From assembly GCA_003136575.1 (NCBI GenBank), contig PLEX01000119.1:4515-68514 (forward strand): a stretch of DNA of 64,000 nt. The letters run 5' to 3'. The notes below the pieces were generated by a model. It searched no databases. It saw nothing but the letters and a program-made list of their open reading frames with translations, and was not told the origin of the DNA. This DNA is from Bryobacterales bacterium (GTDB lineage: Bacteria; Acidobacteriota; Terriglobia; Bryobacterales; Bryobacteraceae). A program made the position numbers and the translations under genes. Positions 40,083 through 50,496 of this stretch are shown here, piece after piece. Numbering within the stretch: position 1 is the stretch's first letter; every line of letters starts with the position of its first letter.

Positions 40083-41204
40083 TCAAGGAAGCATTTCTCC
40101 GCGCTGGGCGAGGAAGTGGCGCATGGCGGGCCGCAGCCCCGGGTTGGCGCACAACTGGAGGATGCCGGTAGCGGCGCTCAGCATCGTCGTCAGCGGCCAC
40201 GACGCACTCTTGCCCCAGACTTCGGTAAGCGAGCGCGCCACGCCGTCCTGCGTTCGATAGAAAACGCGATCCGTCCAGCGTTGCCTTCCCTGCGATTCCG
40301 GGTAAGTCCGAAGGATGTCCCAGGCCATTTCGAGAATGCGCTGCGCCATCGGTTCGCGATAGTGCGGCATGAAGTACGGCGCGCTTCGGCCCGCGCGAAT
40401 CTCGGCGACAAATTCGGAAAACGACGCGGCGTTCGTCAGATTGATGCACGCCGAGGGTTCGCAGGCGTGGCGGTCGCCGCCGGAGACCAGAGGGCGAAGG
40501 TACGTTTTCGCGAGGTGGACGACCTTCTCGTTTTCGTTCCAGACTCGCGTGCCATTCAGCTCGAACGCGTGGATCGAGTCGATGCATTCGCGCAGGATTC
40601 GCGGGAGTGCGCGGTCGTGATTCGCCTGCTCGATGCCTTCCTCGAGCCAGAAGGGGTGATTGAGGACGATCAGGACTTCCGGATTCGCGGCCAGATCGCG
40701 CAGCATGTCCGGCAGACGGTTCTCGTCGGGCGTCGCAGTGAACGCCGCCATCGCGGACATCGCCTCACGCGCCGAAACGGGCGGAAGGTTGTGAATGCCC
40801 AGGTGGAAAATCGAACGGTCGTACGGAACGGTCCACTCGACGGAAACCGGGACTTCGGCCGGGTCTGCGGCAACCTGTAACGAAATGCCCGCTTCGATAT
40901 TGTCATGGTCCGTGAGAGAGACCAATGGACGCAGACCCAACTTTGCGATCTGTTTTCGCTCAACATGCAAAGCGGAGGCCGGACTCAGCGGCGGAGTCCA
41001 CCAGGCGCGCGCGAAATCGACAGGACACGGCCCGCGCTCATAGCCGCTCACGATTTGGGAAACGACGGGCGCCTTATGCAGGTAACGCGGCAGGAACGAC
41101 AGGCACTCTTCGGAATGCAGCGTATGGCCGTGCAGGCAAACACCCGTTGCGAACTGCGATGCAGCTTCGGAATCCTTCCAGGCGAATTTGACGGATTTCG
41201 GCAA
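40083..41204 (-). CDS. PHP-domain-like metal-dependent phosphoesterase
   Basis: 373-aa ORF with PHP-type motifs CLHGHTLHSEE, SLTDHDNIE, HLGIHNL, LNHPFW, AFELNG and SGGDRHA. Confidence 0.55.
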   Translation of the reverse strand: MPKSVKFAWKDSEAASQFATGVCLHGHTLHSEECLSFLPRYLHKAPVVSQIVSGYERGPCPVDFARAWWTPPLSPASALHVERKQIAKLGLRPLVSLTDHDNIEAGISLQVAADPAEVPVSVEWTVPYDRSIFHLGIHNLPPVSAREAMSAMAAFTATPDENRLPDMLRDLAANPEVLIVLNHPFWLEEGIEQANHDRALPRILRECIDSIHAFELNGTRVWNENEKVVHLAKTYLRPLVSGGDRHACEPSACINLTNAASFSEFVAEIRAGRSAPYFMPHYREPMAQRILEMAWDILRTYPESQGRQRWTDRVFYRTQDGVARSLTEVWGKSASWPLTTMLSAATGILQLCANPGLRPAMRHFLAQRGEMLP

Positions 41205-41528
41205 TATATGACTCTCCCGTACCCTCAGGATGGCGGGGGAAGGTTACAATTGCTTCGCAAACGCGTGTTGGTTTGGCTAAAACACTATATAGCCCGAATG
41301 TTTTTAGGGGGTATCCCCGGGGACAAAGCGGCGACCCGCTGCGTTTCAATCACATGGCCCGCGAGTCAGTTCAAGATGAGCCTGCCCGGTGTTGATCGCG
41401 CGTTCGCCAGCGCGGTCGAAGTCAATCTGATGGGCGGATTGACCATCCTCGTCGCGCCGCCGATCGTCACGGCCCTACTGAAGATCATTGCCTGGCACCA
41501 AGAGTTCCAACCTCGAATCGGCTTCCAG

Positions 41529-42827
41529 CTACCAGAAGTAGGCAGTCTCGATCCGCGGCGGCCCGGAACTGCCTCTTACGACCTCAGTGGATATGACAGC
41601 CTGAAGATTCTTGTGCTGCCATCCGGCTGGCGCGAAGGATTCCAGTTTTTTCATGTAGGTGTCGTTCGTGACGAACTCGCCGGCCGCCAGTGTGCCGTTG
41701 GGACCGAGGCCGCCGACGGTAACGATCACTTGCTCAACGCCTGGGTCCGCCACACGGGAGACAAGGGCATAATCCCGGCCGGATTCCAATCCCGATAATC
41801 CGGAAGGTATTGACCACGATCGCGAGGGATTCCGACTATCGCGAATCGCCACCGGTCTGGAAGTGACATCAAAACTGAATCGCAACTTACCGGCGGACTT
41901 GATTGCCCAGCTATTGTTCCGCACGCCGATCAAAATGGCCGGAGAATCGCGCAGGTCGGCCAAGGTAGTGCCGTTGGGATTGAGAACCCGATAGGGCGCG
42001 TGCCGCAATCCCATGTAATCCGTGACGCGGGCGAGAGTCAGGGCATCGGTCATGGTGATCGGGCGCATGAGCGGGTCATCCGCAGGCTCGGCGGCCGCGC
42101 CGGATTGTCCAGTGTCCCGGCCGCCTTGCCCACCTTCCAGGGGACGGTTTCCCGACCCGCCGTAGCGGTTGCCCACGCAGATCAGAACCGGACGAGCCGA
42201 GGCCAACACTGGATTCCAGAACTCATCCAGGTCGCTTTGCGGACCGCCGAAGGAGGCTCGCAGAATCGCAAGAACGGCCAGCGCCGCAGCCGGCAGCACG
42301 AACATCGCCCGGCGGTAGGTATTCGCAGCTGGTTTGACTTCCACGGCGTCGGGTATTTCCCGAATTTCCGCCAGGGCGGCTACGGGAACCGCCTCGGTAA
42401 CCGGCGCGCGAAACTGCGGGATATAAGATCCCAGCGGCAGGTCAATCCGGATCTCGCCGGAATGGCTGGGGTCCACGTAGTATTGCGCCAGACGGCGACG
42501 CACTTCACCCGCGGCCGAACGGACAACGTGATCCGAGTTCGTATCGTAATCGGCGGCCCTGCCGAAGACCTCGACTCCGATGGTCCGCTCTTTCAGGCAC
42601 TCGGCATTTCCATCGAGCGTCGTCTCCACAACAAAGCGCAGAAACGCAGGGTACCGTTTGCTGGTGCCAAAGACGGAGCTGGCAAGAATACGTTCCAGTT
42701 GCCTATGGACTTCTTCCCGATCCCTGGACGTTCCGGGAAATGGCGCGGAGCTGACTGCGCCAATCTGACTTGTAGTAGACATTTGGACCCACCCGAAACG
42801 GAGGCATAACCCCACCCGGTTCGCCAT
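41529..42827 (-). CDS. single-pass membrane protein with an N-terminal wHTH-like (trans_reg_C-related) module and a periplasmic domain
   Basis: N-terminal block LERILASSVFGTSKRYPAFLRFVVETTLDGNAECLKERTIGVEVFGRAADYDTNSDHVVRSAAGEVRRRLAQYY, then a TM segment (MFVLPAAALAVLAILRASF) and a ~240-aa extracytoplasmic domain. Alternative start at ATG 42782. Confidence 0.6.
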   Translation of the reverse strand: MANRVGLCLRFGWVQMSTTSQIGAVSSAPFPGTSRDREEVHRQLERILASSVFGTSKRYPAFLRFVVETTLDGNAECLKERTIGVEVFGRAADYDTNSDHVVRSAAGEVRRRLAQYYVDPSHSGEIRIDLPLGSYIPQFRAPVTEAVPVAALAEIREIPDAVEVKPAANTYRRAMFVLPAAALAVLAILRASFGGPQSDLDEFWNPVLASARPVLICVGNRYGGSGNRPLEGGQGGRDTGQSGAAAEPADDPLMRPITMTDALTLARVTDYMGLRHAPYRVLNPNGTTLADLRDSPAILIGVRNNSWAIKSAGKLRFSFDVTSRPVAIRDSRNPSRSWSIPSGLSGLESGRDYALVSRVADPGVEQVIVTVGGLGPNGTLAAGEFVTNDTYMKKLESFAPAGWQHKNLQAVISTEVVRGSSGPPRIETAYFW

Positions 42828-42974
42828 AGGAGTATATCACGGATTTCGGGACTCAGCGGCCCGCCGAAAGCGACGTCCCGTACCGTCGTAGACGCCCTGC
42901 CTTCTGGTCGCCTATAGTATTGAAAATGTTATGGTTGAAATGGCAAGGACGGTCAAACGCTTGCGGCTGGGGTT

Positions 42975-42992
42975 GTATTGGGTCGACAATAC
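42975..42992. promoter_or_regulatory. inverted repeat GTATTG-n6-CAATAC in the divergent intergenic region (a related TAGTATTG lies at 42915-42922)
   Basis: Read directly. It lies 75 nt upstream of the 43067 start codon, between divergent genes. Confidence 0.25.
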
Positions 42993-43066
42993 TAGAAACT
43001 GCGAGACGCACCTTAACGCGTCAGAAGGACCCGCCTTGCGCTGGTCTGCACAGGAGTTTGGCAACA

Positions 43067-43501
43067 ATGAAGTTAACGAATATCCCCGGTTACTGTCTTT
43101 CTGTGTTCGTGCTCGGCGCGACGGCGGCTTATGCCCATCACTCGTTCGCGATGTTCGAGATGTCGAAGAACGTAACGTACGTGGGAACCGTTCTCGAGTA
43201 CAACTGGGAGAATCCCCATACGCACATCATCGTAAAGGTGCCCGAAGGGCGGGATAAAGCTACGGTCGGGACTTGGGATGTGGAGGGCGGCGCCGTCAAC
43301 ATCATGTCAAAACAGGGCTGGAACCGCGCGACCTTCAAGCCTGGCGACCAGATAACCGTGGTCGGGCACCCGATGAAAGACGGATCCAAAGGCGTCTCGC
43401 TATTTTATGTGATCATGCCGGACGGCAAGCGGTTGTATCACGATATTGCGCGGCCCGCTCCCGATGGAGCCGAGCCGCCACGCCAGCCGAATGCGCAGTA
43501 G
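43067..43501 (+). CDS. secreted protein with mature N-terminus HHSF (DUF6152-like)
   Basis: Start at ATG 43067, with AGGAG 11 nt upstream. Signal peptide MKLTNIPGYCLSVFVLGATAAYA, then HHSFAMFEMSKNVTYVGTVLEYNWENPHTHIIV. The DUF6152 label is recalled from memory. Confidence 0.7.
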   Translation: MKLTNIPGYCLSVFVLGATAAYAHHSFAMFEMSKNVTYVGTVLEYNWENPHTHIIVKVPEGRDKATVGTWDVEGGAVNIMSKQGWNRATFKPGDQITVVGHPMKDGSKGVSLFYVIMPDGKRLYHDIARPAPDGAEPPRQPNAQ

Positions 43502-43504
43502 CCA

Positions 43505-43993
43505 ATGTCGCCGATCAATATTCTGAACTGGCTCCAGCATACGTGGTGGGCCGTCGGGATTAAGGAGTCGGATTTTGTCTTCCCTCTGATTGAGGGGAGC
43601 CATATTCTCTCGCTTTCATTCTCGGTCGGCATGGTCATGATCCTCGATATGCGGTTGCTGCGAATCTCCTTTCGCAGCCAGCCGGTTTCACAGTTGATGG
43701 GGCAGCTCATGCCCTGGACGATGACCGGTTTCGCCGTTATGCTGCTGACCGGAATCCTGCTATTCGCCGCGCAGGCCGTCAAGGTCTATGGCAACACATT
43801 TTTCAGAATCAAAATGATTCTGATGTTGTTGGCCGGACTCAACGCCCTGTACTACCAGGTCAGATACTACCCGAAGATGGCGGAATGGGAACGCACGAAG
43901 ACGCCGCTCGGCGTGCGCATTATTGCTGTCCTTTCCCTGATCCTCTGGATCGGCGTGATCGCCTGCGGCCGCACGACGGCGTACGAACTGTAG
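43505..43993 (+). CDS. 4-TM membrane protein, paralog 1 (DUF6644-like)
   Basis: 162 aa. Motifs EGSHILSLS, ILDMRLL, MPWTMTG, FRIKMILMLLAG and LWIGVIACGRTTAY. Starts 3 nt after the upstream stop. Confidence 0.75.
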   Translation: MSPINILNWLQHTWWAVGIKESDFVFPLIEGSHILSLSFSVGMVMILDMRLLRISFRSQPVSQLMGQLMPWTMTGFAVMLLTGILLFAAQAVKVYGNTFFRIKMILMLLAGLNALYYQVRYYPKMAEWERTKTPLGVRIIAVLSLILWIGVIACGRTTAYEL

Positions 43994-44015
43994 GAATTGC
44001 CGGTCCACCTTCTCC

Positions 44016-44504
44016 ATGTTCCAGACATTCATCGATCGTTTTGTCCAATGGTGTTACTACTCGAAGGACTATGCGTTCATTCGGGATACTCCCTATGGCG
44101 TGCCCTTTGTGCAGTCCATGCATCTGACCGGAATTACGTTGTTGCTGGGAACGACGCTGGCGCTCAATCTCCGGCTCCTGGGCATCGGCTTTAAACGCAT
44201 GTCTCTTCCGTATCTGGCGGAGCAACTCTGGCTGTGGACGAAAGCGGGGATGGCGCTGACCGTCGTTTCGGGCATTATGGTCTTTCTTCCGGATCCGACC
44301 CGTTATGCGCATAACGGCCCCTTCCGGCTGAAGATGATACTGCTATGTCTTGCGCTGGCGTATCAGTTCGCGGTGTTTCGCAGGGTGGTCCGGACCGATC
44401 CGGAATCCGGATCGAAAGCGCGGAACGCCGCATTCAGTGCGTTGTCTCTGTGCCTCTGGTTCGGTGTGGCGTGGTCGGGCCGGGCGATTGCCTTCTTCCA
44501 GTAG
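44016..44504 (+). CDS. 4-TM membrane protein, paralog 2 (DUF6644-like)
   Basis: 162 aa. Motifs VQSMHLTGIT, ALNLRLL, LWLWTKAG, FRLKMILLCLA and LWFGVAWSGRAIAF. Confidence 0.75.
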   Translation: MFQTFIDRFVQWCYYSKDYAFIRDTPYGVPFVQSMHLTGITLLLGTTLALNLRLLGIGFKRMSLPYLAEQLWLWTKAGMALTVVSGIMVFLPDPTRYAHNGPFRLKMILLCLALAYQFAVFRRVVRTDPESGSKARNAAFSALSLCLWFGVAWSGRAIAFFQ

Positions 44505-44525
44505 CCCGATTGCCGGTGGGCAGGT

Positions 44526-45062
44526 TCAAACCAGATGGGCGAGCCGGCGCAACAAACCTGCAATCGCGTTCGGATCGTCGTAATAGGCGATCCACCTTCC
44601 GCAGACGACCAGACTCAGCCAGAGAATCAGGGAAGCGCCCCCCGCGATCACAGCCTTCGCCGGCAGCTTTCCTTCCTCATCCAGGCGGGTGTTGTAATAA
44701 ACGCTGCGATGAAAGATCAGTCCGTGGATGCCTGTCAGGATCAGCAGGGATAACTTGAGCTGAAAATACGGATTCGCGCAGTACTTCTCCAGATGCGAGC
44801 CGGCGAGAAGGATGCCGCACGCGATCATGACGACGAAGCCGATACGCTTCCACACGCGCAGCGATTCAATCACCACGCTGGCCGGAGTATGCTTCAGCGC
44901 CAGATTCAACAGACGGAGATTCGTCATCAGAATCATGCCGCCAAAAATGGCGATGCAGGAGAGATGAGTCGCCATCACGGTCGGATAGAACAGTTCCGAC
45001 TGGCGGACCGACGTAAAAAAGTCGGTACTCTGGATCGCGTGGCTTAGAGTCGCTAACGACAT
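44526..45062 (-). CDS. 4-TM membrane protein, paralog 3 (DUF6644-like)
   Basis: 178 aa. Motifs VMATHLSCIA, MTNLRLL, LRVWKRIG, FQLKLSLLILTG and LWLSLVVCGRWIAY. Confidence 0.75.
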   Translation of the reverse strand: MSLATLSHAIQSTDFFTSVRQSELFYPTVMATHLSCIAIFGGMILMTNLRLLNLALKHTPASVVIESLRVWKRIGFVVMIACGILLAGSHLEKYCANPYFQLKLSLLILTGIHGLIFHRSVYYNTRLDEEGKLPAKAVIAGGASLILWLSLVVCGRWIAYYDDPNAIAGLLRRLAHLV

Positions 45063-45071
45063 GGGAACTCG

Positions 45072-45545
45072 CTAATACCCGCCTGGGTTGAAAGCGAAGA
45101 ACAGGCCGGAAAACACTATCGTTACCCAGAGAATCATGGATATTGCCCCTGTGGCCTTCGCGATGAAGGGAGAGGAACCAGACAGCGCCACTCTCCGGTG
45201 GAACGTGTAGTTGAAAACGATGGCGGCCAACAGCACCCAGATCTTGAACCGGAAGGTCGGGCTGTAGTAATAGCGCAGCGGATCGGACGAAAAGATCGCC
45301 AGCCCGGCGGTAATGACGGTTGCCAGCCCGGCCACCGTCCACAACTCGGTAGCGCGCAGAATCTGCGCGGGACTGCGTCCTTTGACGCCGGCGCCAAGCA
45401 GGCTCATGTCCACCATGGCGATCGTCCCGATGGAAAGCGCGAACGATCCGATATGAACACACTCCATGGCCGCGAACAGCCATTCCACCGTGTTCATTGG
45501 ATTGGTGGAGAGGTCGTAAGGTTGTATCAACTCGATCTCCGCCAC
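45072..45545 (-). CDS. 4-TM membrane protein, paralog 4 (DUF6644-like)
   Basis: 157 aa. Motifs MECVHIGSFA, MVDMSLL, TELWTVAG, FRFKIWVLLAA and LWVTIVFSGLFFAF. Confidence 0.75.
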   Translation of the reverse strand: MAEIELIQPYDLSTNPMNTVEWLFAAMECVHIGSFALSIGTIAMVDMSLLGAGVKGRSPAQILRATELWTVAGLATVITAGLAIFSSDPLRYYYSPTFRFKIWVLLAAIVFNYTFHRRVALSGSSPFIAKATGAISMILWVTIVFSGLFFAFNPGGY

Positions 45546-45576
45546 TGGTGCGCAACATTCTTTTTCCCGGTATGCG

Positions 45577-46530
45577 TCACAGATCCAGTGCTCGTTCCAT
45601 CCAGTCTATCTGTCTGCGCGTTTCCTCGACGGCGGTGAAGCCGGGAGTCGTGTAACTCCTCTCGAGGATGAAAGCAATCGGGTAGTGCCTGTCCCTTGCC
45701 ATCCGCAGCATGTCGTAAATCCTGAGCACGCCTTCGCCCAATTCAGTGGCGGGGCCGCCGCCGACCGATTTTACGTCTTTCACATGGACATGGCTGATGC
45801 GATCATGGTGTTCCGTGAAGTACTTCAACGGATCGTTGCCGCCGTCCGCGAAGTGGCCGATGTCCAGATTCACCATGAAGTACTTCGACATCGACAGAAG
45901 CTTCGCCAGACTTTCGGGCGAGGCAACCTCGTTGGGGTCGTTCACCAGAGCATGGGTATGCCAGGCGGGCATAATCCTGTACTTCTCGGCGTAAGGAACA
46001 ATTCGGGGGCCGGCAGACACGCGGCTCTGATTGGTACAGAACCGGTCGACACCCAGAGCCTGCATCTGTTTGAAGACAGCCTCGATTTCCGGTTCGGTGA
46101 AGTCGTCGCCGATCGTCATCACCAAGGAATACAGGTTCAATCCCGCCGCGTCGAATTTCCTGCGGATTTCCCGGAAACGGTCCAGCGGCCCGTTGATTCG
46201 CCAATCGCGCAGTGCCTCCCGGGACTTCTGGTATTCGGGCGTCACTGTTGTCGGTGCCTGGCCACCGATGCCGCCGCCCGTCACGCGGGGTTCCAGTGGC
46301 GTATTGACCAATTCCACGGTGCCCGCTTTGGCATCGATGCATTGTTGGACGATCAGATCAACGACATCCTGACCCGGCGCGGCGTTGGCCTGTCCGAGCG
46401 ATCCGGTGATTGCGCCGAGCCTGACGCCTTTATAAACCGCATCGACAGCCGCGCTCTTCAGACTGGTAGCGGCCAGCGTGGGGAGCGTGGCGCCTGCGAG
46501 TATCTTCCCCCATTCGCGTCGTGAATACAT
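45577..46530 (-). CDS. xylose-isomerase-like TIM-barrel protein (sugar phosphate isomerase/epimerase family) with a Tat-like signal
   Basis: Start at ATG 46530 (MYSRREWGKILAGATLPTLAATSL). Motifs VELVN, WHTHA, NLDIGHF and ISHVHVKDV. Confidence 0.7.
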   Translation of the reverse strand: MYSRREWGKILAGATLPTLAATSLKSAAVDAVYKGVRLGAITGSLGQANAAPGQDVVDLIVQQCIDAKAGTVELVNTPLEPRVTGGGIGGQAPTTVTPEYQKSREALRDWRINGPLDRFREIRRKFDAAGLNLYSLVMTIGDDFTEPEIEAVFKQMQALGVDRFCTNQSRVSAGPRIVPYAEKYRIMPAWHTHALVNDPNEVASPESLAKLLSMSKYFMVNLDIGHFADGGNDPLKYFTEHHDRISHVHVKDVKSVGGGPATELGEGVLRIYDMLRMARDRHYPIAFILERSYTTPGFTAVEETRRQIDWMERALDL

Positions 46531-46540
46531 GGCTCGCGGT

Positions 46541-47431
46541 TTACCTTTGCACGGGTGGCACAATCGACTGGTTCCACAGCGGGTCGGTGGCGTCGCAGAA
46601 GGTTTCGAGCGCATACGATCCCGGTTCCGTCCGGTCGAAAAAATACTGAAAGGTGTGCGGCTTCTGGTAGATTTTCGGATCGATCCAGGTAAACGTGATC
46701 GTCAGGTGCTTCCCGTCGGCCGAAGGCGTGTAGCGTTGAATGGCGCGCGTCTCCGCGGTGCGATAGCCGCCCGCCGTGACCGCACCCGGGGTCATGTCGC
46801 CGGTTTCTACCACCAGCGTGCCGTCCGCTTCAAAATGCCCCACGGAATAGCCCGAACTGGTTGGCTGCCGGACGGAGGCATCGGGGATGGCAGTCCGGTT
46901 GAGATAAATCCGCCGCGAGCCATTGCGTTCCTGAACCACCAGTGCTTCCTGCCTGCTCACCACCATGTGGAAGCCTTCGGAATCGTATTCCATGCCGAGT
47001 TGCCCGCCGCCATTGAACGAGCAGGAATTCTGCCGCACGAGGTAGGGCACGCCGACCTCATGCGGACCCGTATCGGCTGTCTGACCGCCCCCTGGGCCTC
47101 CCCGGCCCCCACCTCGCCCGCCGCGTCCTCCACCCTGCGCCAGCGCGGCACCTTCCGGAGTGAGCAAGGCGGGAGTAAAGGTTCTTGTCAGCGCGTCCCA
47201 GCTTCCCGCGCCAACGGGATCGATGCGCACCCAATCGCCTTCCACACTGGGCGGAACCGGTGCGGCTTGTCCCCGCCCGCCGCCGCGTCCTTGCACGCTG
47301 CCCGGCGTCTGGGCAAGCAGCAGCGCCGAGGCCGCTATACCCATCAGGATCAGCCGGAATGGCCGGACTCCCGAACTGCTCACTTCATTTCCCATAGCCA
47401 ATTCAAACTCCCTGTTTGCCGAGCGCCTCAT
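46541..47431 (-). CDS. secreted hypothetical protein, paralog B, with Gly/Arg-rich segments
   Basis: Signal-like FRLILMGIAASALLLAQ; GRGGGRGQ and QGGGRGGRGGGRGGPGGGQ. Shared core with paralog A: SVGHFEADGTLVVET...IQRYT...ITFTWIDPKIYQKPHTFQY. Its ATG overlaps the stop of paralog A (ATGA). Confidence 0.65.
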   Translation of the reverse strand: MRRSANREFELAMGNEVSSSGVRPFRLILMGIAASALLLAQTPGSVQGRGGGRGQAAPVPPSVEGDWVRIDPVGAGSWDALTRTFTPALLTPEGAALAQGGGRGGRGGGRGGPGGGQTADTGPHEVGVPYLVRQNSCSFNGGGQLGMEYDSEGFHMVVSRQEALVVQERNGSRRIYLNRTAIPDASVRQPTSSGYSVGHFEADGTLVVETGDMTPGAVTAGGYRTAETRAIQRYTPSADGKHLTITFTWIDPKIYQKPHTFQYFFDRTEPGSYALETFCDATDPLWNQSIVPPVQR

Positions 47432-48342
47432 TTTGCCGCCGTCGCCACCGGCCGCGCCGGCGCCTTTCTGCCCGATGCACCCGCTGCCGCTCGCCCGGCG
47501 GCCGCTGCCGCCCTGGCTTCAATGGATGCCGCCTCGGCTGCGGCCCTTTGCGCCGGGGTGAATGTCCGGGTGATGAACTCGGTGCGTTCCGCGTCAAACG
47601 GGTCGCAGGGGATGCCGTTTCGGGGTTCATAATCGGCAGCCGCCTTCGTATAACGGTATTCGTAGGTGTGCGGTGTCCGAAAGACCCTGGGGTCCGTCCA
47701 CGTGAATGAAACGGAGAGGACGGTGCCGTTCTTGAGCAAGGTGTATCGTTCCACCAGATGGGAGTTTTCGGTCCGGAACCCGCCGCCCGGAATCAGCATT
47801 CTGCCGTCTTTGGGGTGGAAGCCGATCGTATCCACAATCAGCGTGTCGCCTTCCCAGTGCGCGACGGAATCGCCCATCGACGCCGGGTCGAAGATTTTGG
47901 AATCGATGTGAGGGCGGTCGAAGTAAAGGTGCCGGGGCGAAGCGTTCGCCTCCGGCGTGATCAGGACTTCCCACTTACCCTGTTGAATATCCAGCGGACG
48001 TCCGTTGTCCATCACGGCCGGCAGGCCCAGAGGTCTGCACCAACGGAGAGATACCGCGTCCTCCAGAACAACTTTATCCAGGTAAGTCTTGGTGACCGTG
48101 GGGAGCAGGTTCGCGGCCGGGATGCTCTTGTTCTCCGGACCCAGTTCCCAGTATCCCGAGATATCGTGGGGATCGAAGGAAGCGGCCATCCCGGCGCCGC
48201 GTCCACCGCCCCGGCCGGAACCGCCGGTTGCCCCAATTGCGGCACCACCCCGGCCTGCTCCACCCTGGGCGGCAATTGTCCCTAGCATTGCGGCGCCGAC
48301 CAGGGAAACCCTCAAGGCGCGGCGCGCCAACCAATTCTTCAT
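47428..48342 (-). CDS. secreted hypothetical protein, paralog A, with a Gly/Arg-rich N-terminal segment and an Ala-rich tail
   Basis: Signal MKNWLARRALRVSLVGAAMLGTIAAQ; GGAGRGGAAIGATGGSGRGGGRGAG. Core SVAHWEGDTLIVDT...VERYT...VSFTWTDPRVFRTPHTYEY. Confidence 0.65.
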   Translation of the reverse strand: MKNWLARRALRVSLVGAAMLGTIAAQGGAGRGGAAIGATGGSGRGGGRGAGMAASFDPHDISGYWELGPENKSIPAANLLPTVTKTYLDKVVLEDAVSLRWCRPLGLPAVMDNGRPLDIQQGKWEVLITPEANASPRHLYFDRPHIDSKIFDPASMGDSVAHWEGDTLIVDTIGFHPKDGRMLIPGGGFRTENSHLVERYTLLKNGTVLSVSFTWTDPRVFRTPHTYEYRYTKAAADYEPRNGIPCDPFDAERTEFITRTFTPAQRAAAEAASIEARAAAAAGRAAAGASGRKAPARPVATAAK

Positions 48343-49290
48343 GCCTTGTCCCCACCTTTTCCGATTGTTCAGGTCTTGCGATCAACGCGGCGCAATGGTG
48401 CGCGCCGCCGGGTGCTGTATCTGGTCCATTTTCGGCTCAAGCCGTGGCCAGTGCAAGCTCCTGACCGTCGCAAGTTGTATCCGGTTTTATTTCAGTAGAT
48501 TACCAGTGTATCGACGAGGTATTCCGGGGCAGTCCCGGACAGTCCTGGTCGCGGTTTCTTCCGTATGATTTCCCGGTGCCGGCGACGCGTCGAAATGGGG
48601 CCGTGCGCTTCCCCGGCCGCAAGGACTGTGTTTTCAGCAGAGTGTGGATGTACTTCATGTTGGCAAACAACTGGCGATTCGTGTCCGAGCAGCGATAGCG
48701 GCCCAGGCGGTTCAGGCCATACGCTGTCTCGGGGCAAAGACCCAACGCCAAATTTAATGCAGAAGGCTTGCCCGCAGCCACTAAACGCCGCTTTTTCGGC
48801 GACCGCGTAACCGCATCCCACTCCGCGCGGCTCGAGAAGACCGAAACGGAAAAAGCCTCGGCGTGTGACGCAACCAGTGCAGCAGAGACTCAAGCGAGTG
48901 AGACGTCAACAGCAGGAAAACTGCGCACGAGGTACCTTGCCATTCCGGTTCCACTTCGCCGAGCGTCTGCGTAATGGCGCCGTAGAAGCCCGACCGTCAA
49001 CGCGCGGAAGGCCCATTCCGCGAACATTGCCGCCACTGCCGATTTCCGCCGGCGCTCAGACTTGCAAAGAGGAATATCAACCCGCGTACTATCGAACTGG
49101 TCAGGCCGCCTTCCAGTTCCATCGGCCCACCAGAAGCGCAAGAGCCGCCGGATGCAGCGCCAAATCCTGGATGCACCACCCGTTCAGCAGTGTCCGGCGG
49201 CGTGACTTGCGCGCGCCCACCAGAAGACTGCGTGGGCTTCATACCAATTTACGAGCGCGGCACCGAGCGTGAGGCGATTCAAACGACAGG

Positions 49291-50496
49291 TTAGCGATGA
49301 ATTGTTTTGATGGCATTTAAAGCATGTGAAGGATTGAGCGGCAGCGCAGCAAGATAACCGTCGTAAACGTGGCCGAAGACTTCGTCCCACGATTCGCCAG
49401 ACGCCTGGTCGCGCGCGGCGCGTCCCATTGCGGTACGCAATTCCCCGTCGCTCAGCAGGCGCGCCACCCGTTCGACGAATTCCTCGTCCGTGTACGCCAC
49501 GAAGCCACTCAGCCCTTCGCGAACGATGAACTTCGGACCGCCGGCACTGGTTACAACCGCCGGTACTCCCGAGGCGAACGCCTCCAGCACGACGTTGCCA
49601 AACGTATCCGTGCGGGAAGGGAATGCAAAAACGTCCATATTGGCGAAGTCTTGGCTGAGGGCCGCGCCGCGCCGCACGCCCCTGAAATCGGCATTTTGCA
49701 GATTGTCCCGCAGCCAATCGAGTTCACTGCCGTCGCCGACGATGAGGAAACGAAACGGCGGCGCGCTCTGCGCTTGCAGCGCGATTTCAAGATCGCGCAG
49801 GAAGCGGACGCTTTTCTCGGGTGTGATGCGGCCGACGTACCCGATTCGTAATATGCCGTCGTTCAGGGTTCGCTTCGCCGGATCGAAAAGGTGCGTGTCG
49901 ATGCCGCGTTTCATGGGAAACACCGGCTTGCCCGTTCCGTCCCGAAGCATCGCGACCAGTTCCGCGTTGGGCTCGTACAGAACGTCGCCCTTCCGGTAGA
50001 ATGCCAGGCATATTCGCAGGCTCTGCGCTTCGGTGAACCGCCCCACAGCGTTCCGAATGCCTTCCGGCATCCATCTTAAGGAATTCATCAGGCGCATGGC
50101 CCCGAACTCGTGCAGATTCGTGTGCCAGGAGATGGCGAGCGGAACCTTGAGTTTCTTCGCCACGTAGACACCGACGGTACTGACGTCGCCGGGGCTGACC
50201 ACGCGCACGATGTCAGGCCTGAATTCCTCAACTGCCTTCGCGATTTCGATAGCCGAGCGCCAAAGCACCGTATCATAGAGCAACCCGCGGTCGAGGTGAA
50301 TGACAAACCGGCTGCGCGCGAGTTCACAGTGCACAACCGACCCATCCACACTGTTCCGCGTCGACGAACCACCGCGAACGCAGAACAACGGATAATCGTG
50401 GCGGCGCGCGAAATCCACGAATTGGCGGCTGGTCAGCGCGACACCGTTGATCTCCTCAAAAGTATCCGTGAATAGCGCGACGCGCAACGGGACCAT
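49291..50496 (-). CDS. GT4-family (GT-B) glycosyltransferase
   Basis: Start at ATG 50496 (MVPLRVALFTDTF). C-terminal motif FAFPSRTDTFGNVVLEAFASGVPAV. The upstream 64 codons of the ORF look non-coding. Confidence 0.8.
   Translation of the reverse strand: MVPLRVALFTDTFEEINGVALTSRQFVDFARRHDYPLFCVRGGSSTRNSVDGSVVHCELARSRFVIHLDRGLLYDTVLWRSAIEIAKAVEEFRPDIVRVVSPGDVSTVGVYVAKKLKVPLAISWHTNLHEFGAMRLMNSLRWMPEGIRNAVGRFTEAQSLRICLAFYRKGDVLYEPNAELVAMLRDGTGKPVFPMKRGIDTHLFDPAKRTLNDGILRIGYVGRITPEKSVRFLRDLEIALQAQSAPPFRFLIVGDGSELDWLRDNLQNADFRGVRRGAALSQDFANMDVFAFPSRTDTFGNVVLEAFASGVPAVVTSAGGPKFIVREGLSGFVAYTDEEFVERVARLLSDGELRTAMGRAARDQASGESWDEVFGHVYDGYLAALPLNPSHALNAIKTIHR

Follow-up and report, generated by a model that had tools for sequence, protein, structure and literature searches.

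In Escherichia coli, the CopD protein YebZ has eight helices, and two histidines near its periplasmic side, His135 and His154, are required for copper uptake, which is abolished by the H154A substitution (PMC11923076, PMC13344008). About 35% of the CopD family consists of the four-helix core only, and CopC is encoded adjacently or is fused to it (PMC11923076, PMC13344008); fusion to cytochrome c domains is also seen in some CopD proteins (PMC11923076). HemJ is a membrane b-type haem protein that forms a stable dimer (PMC13564367). Here we describe four genes of the DUF6644 family (PF20349) that lie at 43505-45545 of a 64,000-nucleotide stretch of DNA (the window) from a Bryobacterales bacterium (GCA_003136575.1, contig PLEX01000119.1, positions 4,515 to 68,514 of the forward strand), together with the adjacent gene for an exported protein of the DUF6152 family (PF19649). 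DUF6644 is abundant in soil Acidobacteriota and is found in several other phyla, and neither family is named in any paper found in our search of the literature for both. It is well supported that the four genes represent two ancient pairs, each of one class-A and one class-B protein, of an uncharacterised CopD-like family that is tied to an OB-fold (oligonucleotide/oligosaccharide-binding) protein with a His-His start.

DUF6644 proteins of two classes in adjacent pairs

The plus-strand pair encodes P1 (43505-43993, 162 residues) and P2 (44016-44504, 162 residues), and the minus-strand pair encodes P4 (45072-45545, 157 residues) as its first gene and P3 (44526-45062, 178 residues) as its second, so that the tandem pairs run towards each other and their facing stop codons are 21 nucleotides apart. 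These are exactly the open reading frames and the arrangement given by a sequence-only reading of the window, which had also given the DUF6644 label correctly: all four proteins score above the Pfam gathering cut-off of 27 bits for this 155-position model (P1 to P4, respectively: 56.6, 43.6, 63.3 and 30.1 bits; E-values of 4e-15, 4e-11, 4e-17 and 6e-7), and all 92 aligned relatives match the model too. The four are paralogues of low mutual identity (25-33%), as had been proposed, since each of the six pairwise BLASTP comparisons is significant at proteome scale (56-90 bits, E 2e-11 to 6e-24), the top score among 200 shuffles being 23.5 bits.

The proteins fall into two classes. Class A, which comprises the P1 and P3 clades, carries a four-residue insertion in the third transmembrane helix (TM3) and Tyr160 (residue numbers of DUF6644 are those of P1 throughout); class B, which comprises the P2, P4 and divergent second-gene clades, is without the insertion and mostly has Phe160. 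In the window, P1 contains the insertion AGLN, a C-terminal ..AY motif and E-x-x-H in TM1, and P3 contains the insertion TGIH, the same ..AY motif and a tail of about 20 residues; P2 and P4 are without the insertion and have a C-terminal ..AF, with Q-x-x-H in TM1 of P2 and E-x-x-H in that of P4. An A-then-B pair on the plus strand here converges with a B-then-A pair on the minus strand. P1 and P3 give the best cross-match (89.7 bits), followed by P2 and P4 (67 bits), and P1 and P3 form sister clades with a support of 0.95, the P3 and P4 clades each having a support of 1.0. Each subtype clusters with relatives from other genomes in a clade of its own, which together with the low identity bears out the earlier view that the four copies did not arise by recent duplication. 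Duplication of a whole pair with retention of gene order, which would make P1 the counterpart of P4 and P2 that of P3, was ruled out, as it is P1 and P3, and likewise P2 and P4, that belong together. The histidine of the TM3 insertion (TGIH) is found in all nine P3-type proteins, whose loci include L001, L018, L048, L052, L063, L066 and L069, and asparagine occupies this position in 68 of 68 P1-type proteins; the P3 type therefore has a second conserved membrane histidine, limited to that subtype.

Gene order was compared in 74 loci retrieved with a profile of P1 orthologues, a sampling that leans towards P1-type pairs, and a census of 201 genomes spread evenly over the phylum was added to offset this leaning. 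Of the 68 profile-derived loci that could be scored, 65 have a second-type gene after the P1-type one; a few loci add a P4-then-P3 pair and one has such a pair alone. In the unbiased census, DUF6644 is present in 24 genomes, and the strong matches are adjacent same-strand pairs, with two copies in 13 genomes, four in 4 and six in 1, lone matches being weak (E between 7e-4 and 2e-8). Nineteen pairs from the census comprise 15 in the order A then B, two in the order B then A and two of a third heterotypic type. Copy number reaches 17 per genome in the genus of the source organism and is exactly two or four in other families of the order; in the source genome itself, four clusters with 4, 4, 2 and 2 genes bring the total to 12. 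Searching 1.84 billion representatives with a profile returned 8,560 relatives (representatives of 50% identity clusters) at E<=1e-3, and DUF6644 was found in none of the 14 well-known control genomes examined. Far from occurring as single genes with no partner, homologues thus lie in adjacent pairs, to which the DUF6152 gene described below is added.

Class-A and class-B domains are also joined in natural fusions. The single chain P0241 (about eight TM helices) is an A-B fusion that represents a 90% identity cluster of 61 members on many contigs; P0242 is likewise A-B, P0243 is a single chain of the third pair type, and P0244 is a B-A chain followed by a cytochrome c' domain with a CxxCH motif (19 members, including a protein from a metagenome-assembled genome (MAG) of Bryobacteraceae). 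In addition, some DUF6644 chains carry an N-terminal CarboxypepD_reg domain, and one chain, P0337, is a single case of a fusion of DUF6152 with DUF6644. The two-domain fusions combine one domain of each class, which supports physical association of the two classes, and from the sequences the A and B proteins probably form a heterodimer.

The fixed unit is one class-A plus one class-B subunit and not a quartet. The sequence-only reading had suggested a hetero-oligomeric membrane complex of four proteins; hetero-association agrees with our results, and the four-protein unit does not, the A+B pair being kept across genomes and the set of four genes being missing from most. An obligatory hetero-tetramer of P1 to P4 with 16 TM helices, a proposal about assembly that is compatible with any of the functional readings below, would fit the adjacency of four genes in the window, in the related MAG L001, which has the same eight-gene convergent layout with 74-83% protein identity, and in the single operon on contig C120 of the source genome (in the order DUF6152, A, B, B, A), as well as the recurrence of convergent A-then-B and B-then-A pairs in L018, L048 and L052. 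We nevertheless consider it very unlikely, since most genomes have one pair only, usually A then B, the P4-then-P3 pair also stands alone on contig C118 of the source genome and in L069, and fusions link two domains and never four. A higher assembly of both pairs, of the A2B2 type, may form and is neither required nor contradicted by these results.

Two side observations concern individual clusters. The convergent layout in L052 (5054-8810) lies in a MAG labelled Solirubrobacteraceae (Actinomycetota), together with a DUF6152 gene and genes for the GR proteins described below, and its P3- and P4-type proteins share 49-56% identity with their counterparts in the window, which points to horizontal transfer or to an error in binning. 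On contig C120, a reverse-transcriptase-like open reading frame of the group II intron type (29-1417; type judged from the N-terminal sequence only) directly follows the four-gene cluster, whose last DUF6644 reading frame is long (231 residues).

Conserved core, partner protein and gene neighbourhood

The shared motifs that had been read from the four sequences are in register, occupying the same columns of a MAFFT alignment in which H33, G42, L51, L52, W71, G75, G83, F100, K103, S144, L147, W148, G155 and A159 are invariant in P1 to P4. Across the 92 members, which cover all subtypes, H33, G83, F100, K103 and W148 do not vary, and conservation reaches 90% or more at P27, R50, L51, L107, S144, G155 and R156. 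In a wider set, H33 and K103 are constant in 206 of 206 domains (156 tabulated domains and a further 50 from an independent sample and the fusion proteins) and G83 in all 156 of those tabulated, with F100 and W148 constant or close to it across the set. The weakest of the shared motifs in the wider family is the TM2 tryptophan, W71, present in about 100 of the 156 domains, and the arginine of the 'G[RL]' motif is lost in the P4 type, P4 itself having leucine in place of this TM4 residue. From this pattern, H33 and K103 look essential in each subunit.

AlphaFold2 modelling of P1 as a single chain (predicted local distance difference test, pLDDT, 91) gave two short N-terminal helices followed by four long ones at residues 25-51, 61-89, 98-121 and 135-161, in agreement with the four-TM topology that had been proposed. 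A Foldseek search of the PDB with this model returned nothing below E 0.8 and no solved relative. Counts of lysine and arginine favour a cytoplasmic location for loops 1-2 and 3-4, and both termini are probably periplasmic, an orientation with which the distribution of these residues agrees and which is supported by the fusions to an exported domain at the N-terminus and to a CxxCH domain at the C-terminus. On this predicted topology, H33, G83, F100, K103, G155 and R156 all fall in the periplasmic half of the bundle.

The constant partner of the DUF6644 pairs is DUF6152, whose gene (43067-43501, plus strand; Pfam E 1.3e-28, the sole Pfam match) ends 3 nucleotides upstream of the P1 start. Its likely start is the ATG at 43067, which is preceded by AGGAG and gives a normal signal peptide; the TTG that opens the longest reading frame, at 42920, is probably too far upstream, which would leave 49 codons (42920-43066) untranslated. 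Alignment numbers for DUF6152 start at 43064, one codon before this ATG, and so exceed those of the real precursor by one. The signal peptide ends in ...AAYA and the predicted mature protein begins HHSFAMFE. Among 41-57 homologues, the AxA motif and the His-His that follows it at the predicted cleavage site are at least 90% conserved, an N-P-H motif, a tryptophan and a glutamate are invariant, and an aspartate is nearly so. With cleavage at the predicted site, residue 1 of the mature protein would be histidine, as in histidine-brace copper proteins of the CopC/YcnI type. The AlphaFold2 model of the single chain (pLDDT 85) has the beta1-3/helix/beta4-5 topology of an OB fold, for which Foldseek finds generic OB domains only (LysRS and RPA, E about 1e-4), and in this model the AxA-HH, NPH, Glu and Asp positions would lie on the usual binding face of the fold. 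Sequence searches of the PDB with DUF6152 and GR profiles found no relative. DUF6152 adjoins a DUF6644 pair in 52 of the 71 related loci used for counting neighbours, and three of the four DUF6644 clusters of the source genome have it immediately upstream.

Further genes flank this module in the window. A xylose-isomerase-like TIM barrel protein (AP_endonuc_2, Pfam E 4.9e-11) is encoded upstream of P4 on the same, minus strand (45577-46614), and it has a twin-arginine-type leader (SRREWGK), which suggests that it is probably exported already folded. Its listed start probably overshoots, and a start at Met29 (MYSRREW) would end the overlap with the upstream gene. That gene, GR1 (46541-47431, minus strand), encodes a secreted protein of about 300 residues with a Gly/Arg tract, two conserved cysteines and an HWEGDTLVVDT core, and it is overlapped at its start by the stop codon of its paralogue GR2 (47428-48342, minus strand). 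No match to the GR1/GR2 family was found in Pfam, NCBIfam or PDB sequences. Divergent from the DUF6152 gene is a gene for a 432-residue protein (41529-42827, minus strand) with no Pfam match, whose family (cluster 11) occurs in 11 loci, ten of them with DUF6152, making it a candidate for a dedicated regulator of the cluster. A scan for promoters and terminators gave matches at chance level, an Rfam scan of 41000-49500 gave no match at E<=1, and an NCBIfam scan gave noise-level matches only.

Across the related loci, two types of context recur. In the first, a TonB-dependent receptor, two GR proteins, DUF6152, A, B and Tat-exported (twin-arginine translocation) TIM barrels are found, sometimes with a pyrroloquinoline quinone (PQQ) dehydrogenase and cytochrome c; in the second, a divergent gene for a CxxCH cytochrome c'-like lipoprotein precedes A, B, DUF6152 and a double PD40 propeller. 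The first type is the one seen in the window, where an inversion has split it. TonB-dependent receptors are found in 13 loci, GR proteins in 19 (DUF6152 is present in every one, and the GR genes are often a tandem pair), PD40 propellers in 25, PQQ dehydrogenases in 11 and TIM barrels in 9 of the 71, some relatives having two or three of the last after the DUF6644 pair. The CxxCH lipoprotein is divergent from the module in 18 of 71 loci, and PQQ dehydrogenase and cytochrome c occur in 10-11. A PQQ-dependent dehydrogenase and a dihaem-type cytochrome c lie downstream in L009, L016, L017 and others, and occur together in nine loci. A lanthanide link through the neighbouring PQQ dehydrogenase was considered and dropped, the one sequence inspected reading D-W-D-A-A, which we take to be a Ca-type pattern.

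A possible role in metal hand-off and its alternatives

Remote similarity to described families was sought in profile comparisons. DUF2214 is matched below threshold by P1 and P3 and by 25 of the 92 members (best E 1.8e-6), and CopD (PF05425) is matched, again below threshold, by 15 of the 92 at E<0.01 (best 8e-6); HemJ is matched by one of the 92 (E 0.009), and P2 scores 15.9 bits against its model, for which the cut-off is 138. P2, P3 and P4 have no match to the CopD profile in Pfam. The profile spans residues 63-154 of P1 and 185-284 of YebZ, and H33 lies 30 and YebZ H154 31 residues ahead of the respective match, so that the two would correspond by register. A DUF6644 hidden Markov model (HMM) likewise pairs H33 with H154, and K103 with K230, at an insignificant score, and it also pairs H33 with H13 in the N-terminal half of YebZ; H154 and K230 of YebZ are invariant in enterobacterial CopD, and no equivalent of YebZ His135 was identified in DUF6644. 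On these comparisons, DUF6644 appears to be a four-TM family remotely related to CopD and DUF2214, and membership of CopD is not established. DUF6644 as a substitute where CopD is missing was rejected, because the two families co-occur. The source genome itself, whose assembly is 83% complete, gave no CopD match.

By analogy with CopC and CopD, we give an even chance to the reading in which the locus encodes two heterodimeric metal-handling units for the hand-off or import of a metal, probably copper. Homology, pairing, the two classes, fusions, partner genes and constraints on topology are what the sequences show, and together with the distant likeness to CopD they speak for this reading; that the subunits associate physically, that a metal is bound, which metal it is and which way it passes is inferred. 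Each A+B pair would assemble into one eight-helix unit, much as CopD is made of two halves with four helices each, with both termini in the periplasm and a pocket in the periplasmic half of the bundle formed by the TM1 histidine, the TM3 Phe-x-x-Lys, the TM2 glycine and the TM4 Gly-Arg. Exported DUF6152 would capture a metal ion, most likely copper, by means of its His-His start and pass it to the paired TM1 histidines, serving the DUF6644 pair as CopC/YobA serves CopD/YebZ, and the metal would then be imported or be delivered to membrane or periplasmic enzymes. The bare DUF label would in this way give place to a testable model, in which a fixed A+B heterodimer that resembles two CopD halves, with one histidine and one lysine per subunit at the periplasmic face, has a His-His exported partner. 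If metal hand-off is the correct reading, the system would be a second, structurally distinct route for handing copper or another metal from the periplasm to the membrane, in which an OB fold replaces CopC and split subunits replace the single chain.

Several observations weigh against metal hand-off. P1 scores 17.7 bits against the CopD profile, below the cut-off of 32.1 bits. The HMM alignment with YebZ is insignificant in score. Profile-profile alignment of DUF6644 with enterobacterial CopD by hhalign gave a probability of 0.2%, the CopD alignment being shallow (62-99% identity). The partner is an OB fold and not the beta-sandwich of CopC, with no match to the CopC or DUF1775 families, and no CopC-family match was found among the neighbourhood genes scanned against Pfam, in which DUF6152 is the constant partner. 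CopD is present in 12 of 18 DUF6644-positive genomes against 26 of 183 DUF6644-negative ones, and no gene for a copper enzyme or a copper regulator, and no metal riboswitch, lies in the neighbourhood. Within DUF6644 there is no conserved Met/Cys-rich Cu(I) motif (the M-x3-M of P1 is not kept across the P1 clade) and no conserved polar path across the membrane, and some pairs have no E-x-x-H glutamate in either subunit. The cytochrome c'-like proteins, whether fused or encoded next to the pair, suit a redox role at least as well, and the literature searched contains no experiment on either family.

The redox alternative is a haem-b relay, in which the TM1 histidines of class A and class B jointly ligate one b haem at the subunit interface near the periplasm, as in cytochrome b559 or dimeric HemJ, with Lys and Arg binding the propionates and Gly, Phe and Trp packing the ring, and electrons move between the quinone pool and the cytochrome c'-like protein, DUF6152 as a metalloprotein, PQQ dehydrogenases or cytochrome c. 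The single invariant histidine per subunit, with no second conserved metal ligand, would suit such a site, as would the position of G83, F100, K103, W148, G155 and R156, all in the periplasmic half of the bundle. The reading is kept alive by the match to HemJ, itself a dimeric membrane b-type haem protein (PMC13564367), and by the cytochrome c' links, among them the 19-member cluster of B-A chains with a C-terminal cytochrome c', the divergent CxxCH lipoprotein and the neighbouring PQQ dehydrogenases and cytochromes c. The likeness to HemJ is, however, the weakest of the three remote matches, a single haem near one face cannot alone span the membrane, the source genome is without a cytochrome c'-like gene and the commonest partner, DUF6152, is no cytochrome; moreover, CopD also has cytochrome c fusions (PMC11923076), so that the cytochrome link fits both readings. 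We consider the haem relay unlikely, though by no means far-fetched, and if correct it would describe a new minimal membrane cytochrome. A long shot, taken jointly in all its parts, is an extended form in which the heterodimer is a new membrane cytochrome with a bis-His haem b between two different subunits and DUF6152 is an OB-fold copper protein, the whole being an undescribed periplasmic redox system across soil bacteria: electrons from the quinone pool would reach DUF6152 with the help of the cytochrome c'-like protein, and the N-terminal His site of DUF6152 would oxidise or reduce substrates presented by the two-Cys GR proteins.

A role in the envelope that involves no metal is also conceivable, with DUF6644 as the inner-membrane part of a TonB-dependent route for the uptake or catabolism of an organic or other non-metal substrate. 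In such a route the secreted two-Cys GR proteins would serve as substrate binders, processing would fall to the Tat-exported TIM barrel and the PQQ enzymes, and the DUF6644 pair would provide the permease or membrane anchor, in keeping with the TonB-dependent receptors, GR proteins, TIM barrels, PD40 propellers and PQQ dehydrogenases counted above. Yet the neighbours other than DUF6152 change between loci, a unit of four plus four helices with conserved residues near one face only is unlike a solute permease, and the constant partner, with its invariant His-His start, suggests a metal, so that we regard this role as distinctly improbable.

Comparison with known systems

HemJ (PgdH2; UPF0093, PF03653, TIGR00701), a protoporphyrinogen dehydrogenase, resembles DUF6644 in being a small multi-helix membrane protein; it differs in being a homodimer encoded by a single gene, without a DUF6152-like partner. 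Its haem ligand is reported to be a histidine in TM1. DUF2214 (PF09980) is the commonest remote Pfam match of DUF6644, covering TM1 with its histidine through TM3, but its scores are below the cut-off and it is itself uncharacterised, so that it offers no functional clue. On the side of the partner protein, CusF is an exported metallochaperone with an OB fold that binds Cu(I) or Ag(I) through a His, two Met and a Trp ligand on its beta2/beta3 face and is not known to have an N-terminal histidine. DUF6152 is likewise a small exported OB-fold protein, with putative conserved ligands that would lie on the same face, beside a membrane metal transporter, a putative one in the case of DUF6644, but is joined to CusF by no link in sequence, nor by any among the top Foldseek matches.

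With CopC/CopD (YobA/YebZ, and in Bacillus subtilis YcnI with the CopC-CopD fusion YcnJ) the DUF6644 pairs share four-helix bundles that make eight TM helices in total, a conserved histidine in the first bundle helix near the periplasm with a conserved lysine two helices on, a periplasmic partner with a histidine at its mature N-terminus that is encoded adjacently or fused to the N-terminus of the membrane part, and occasional fusions to cytochrome c. Unlike CopD, DUF6644 draws its eight helices from two genes of two fixed classes, its partner has an OB fold with His-His, NPH, Glu and Asp in place of a beta-sandwich with His-Asp-His, and it occurs alongside CopD instead of replacing it.

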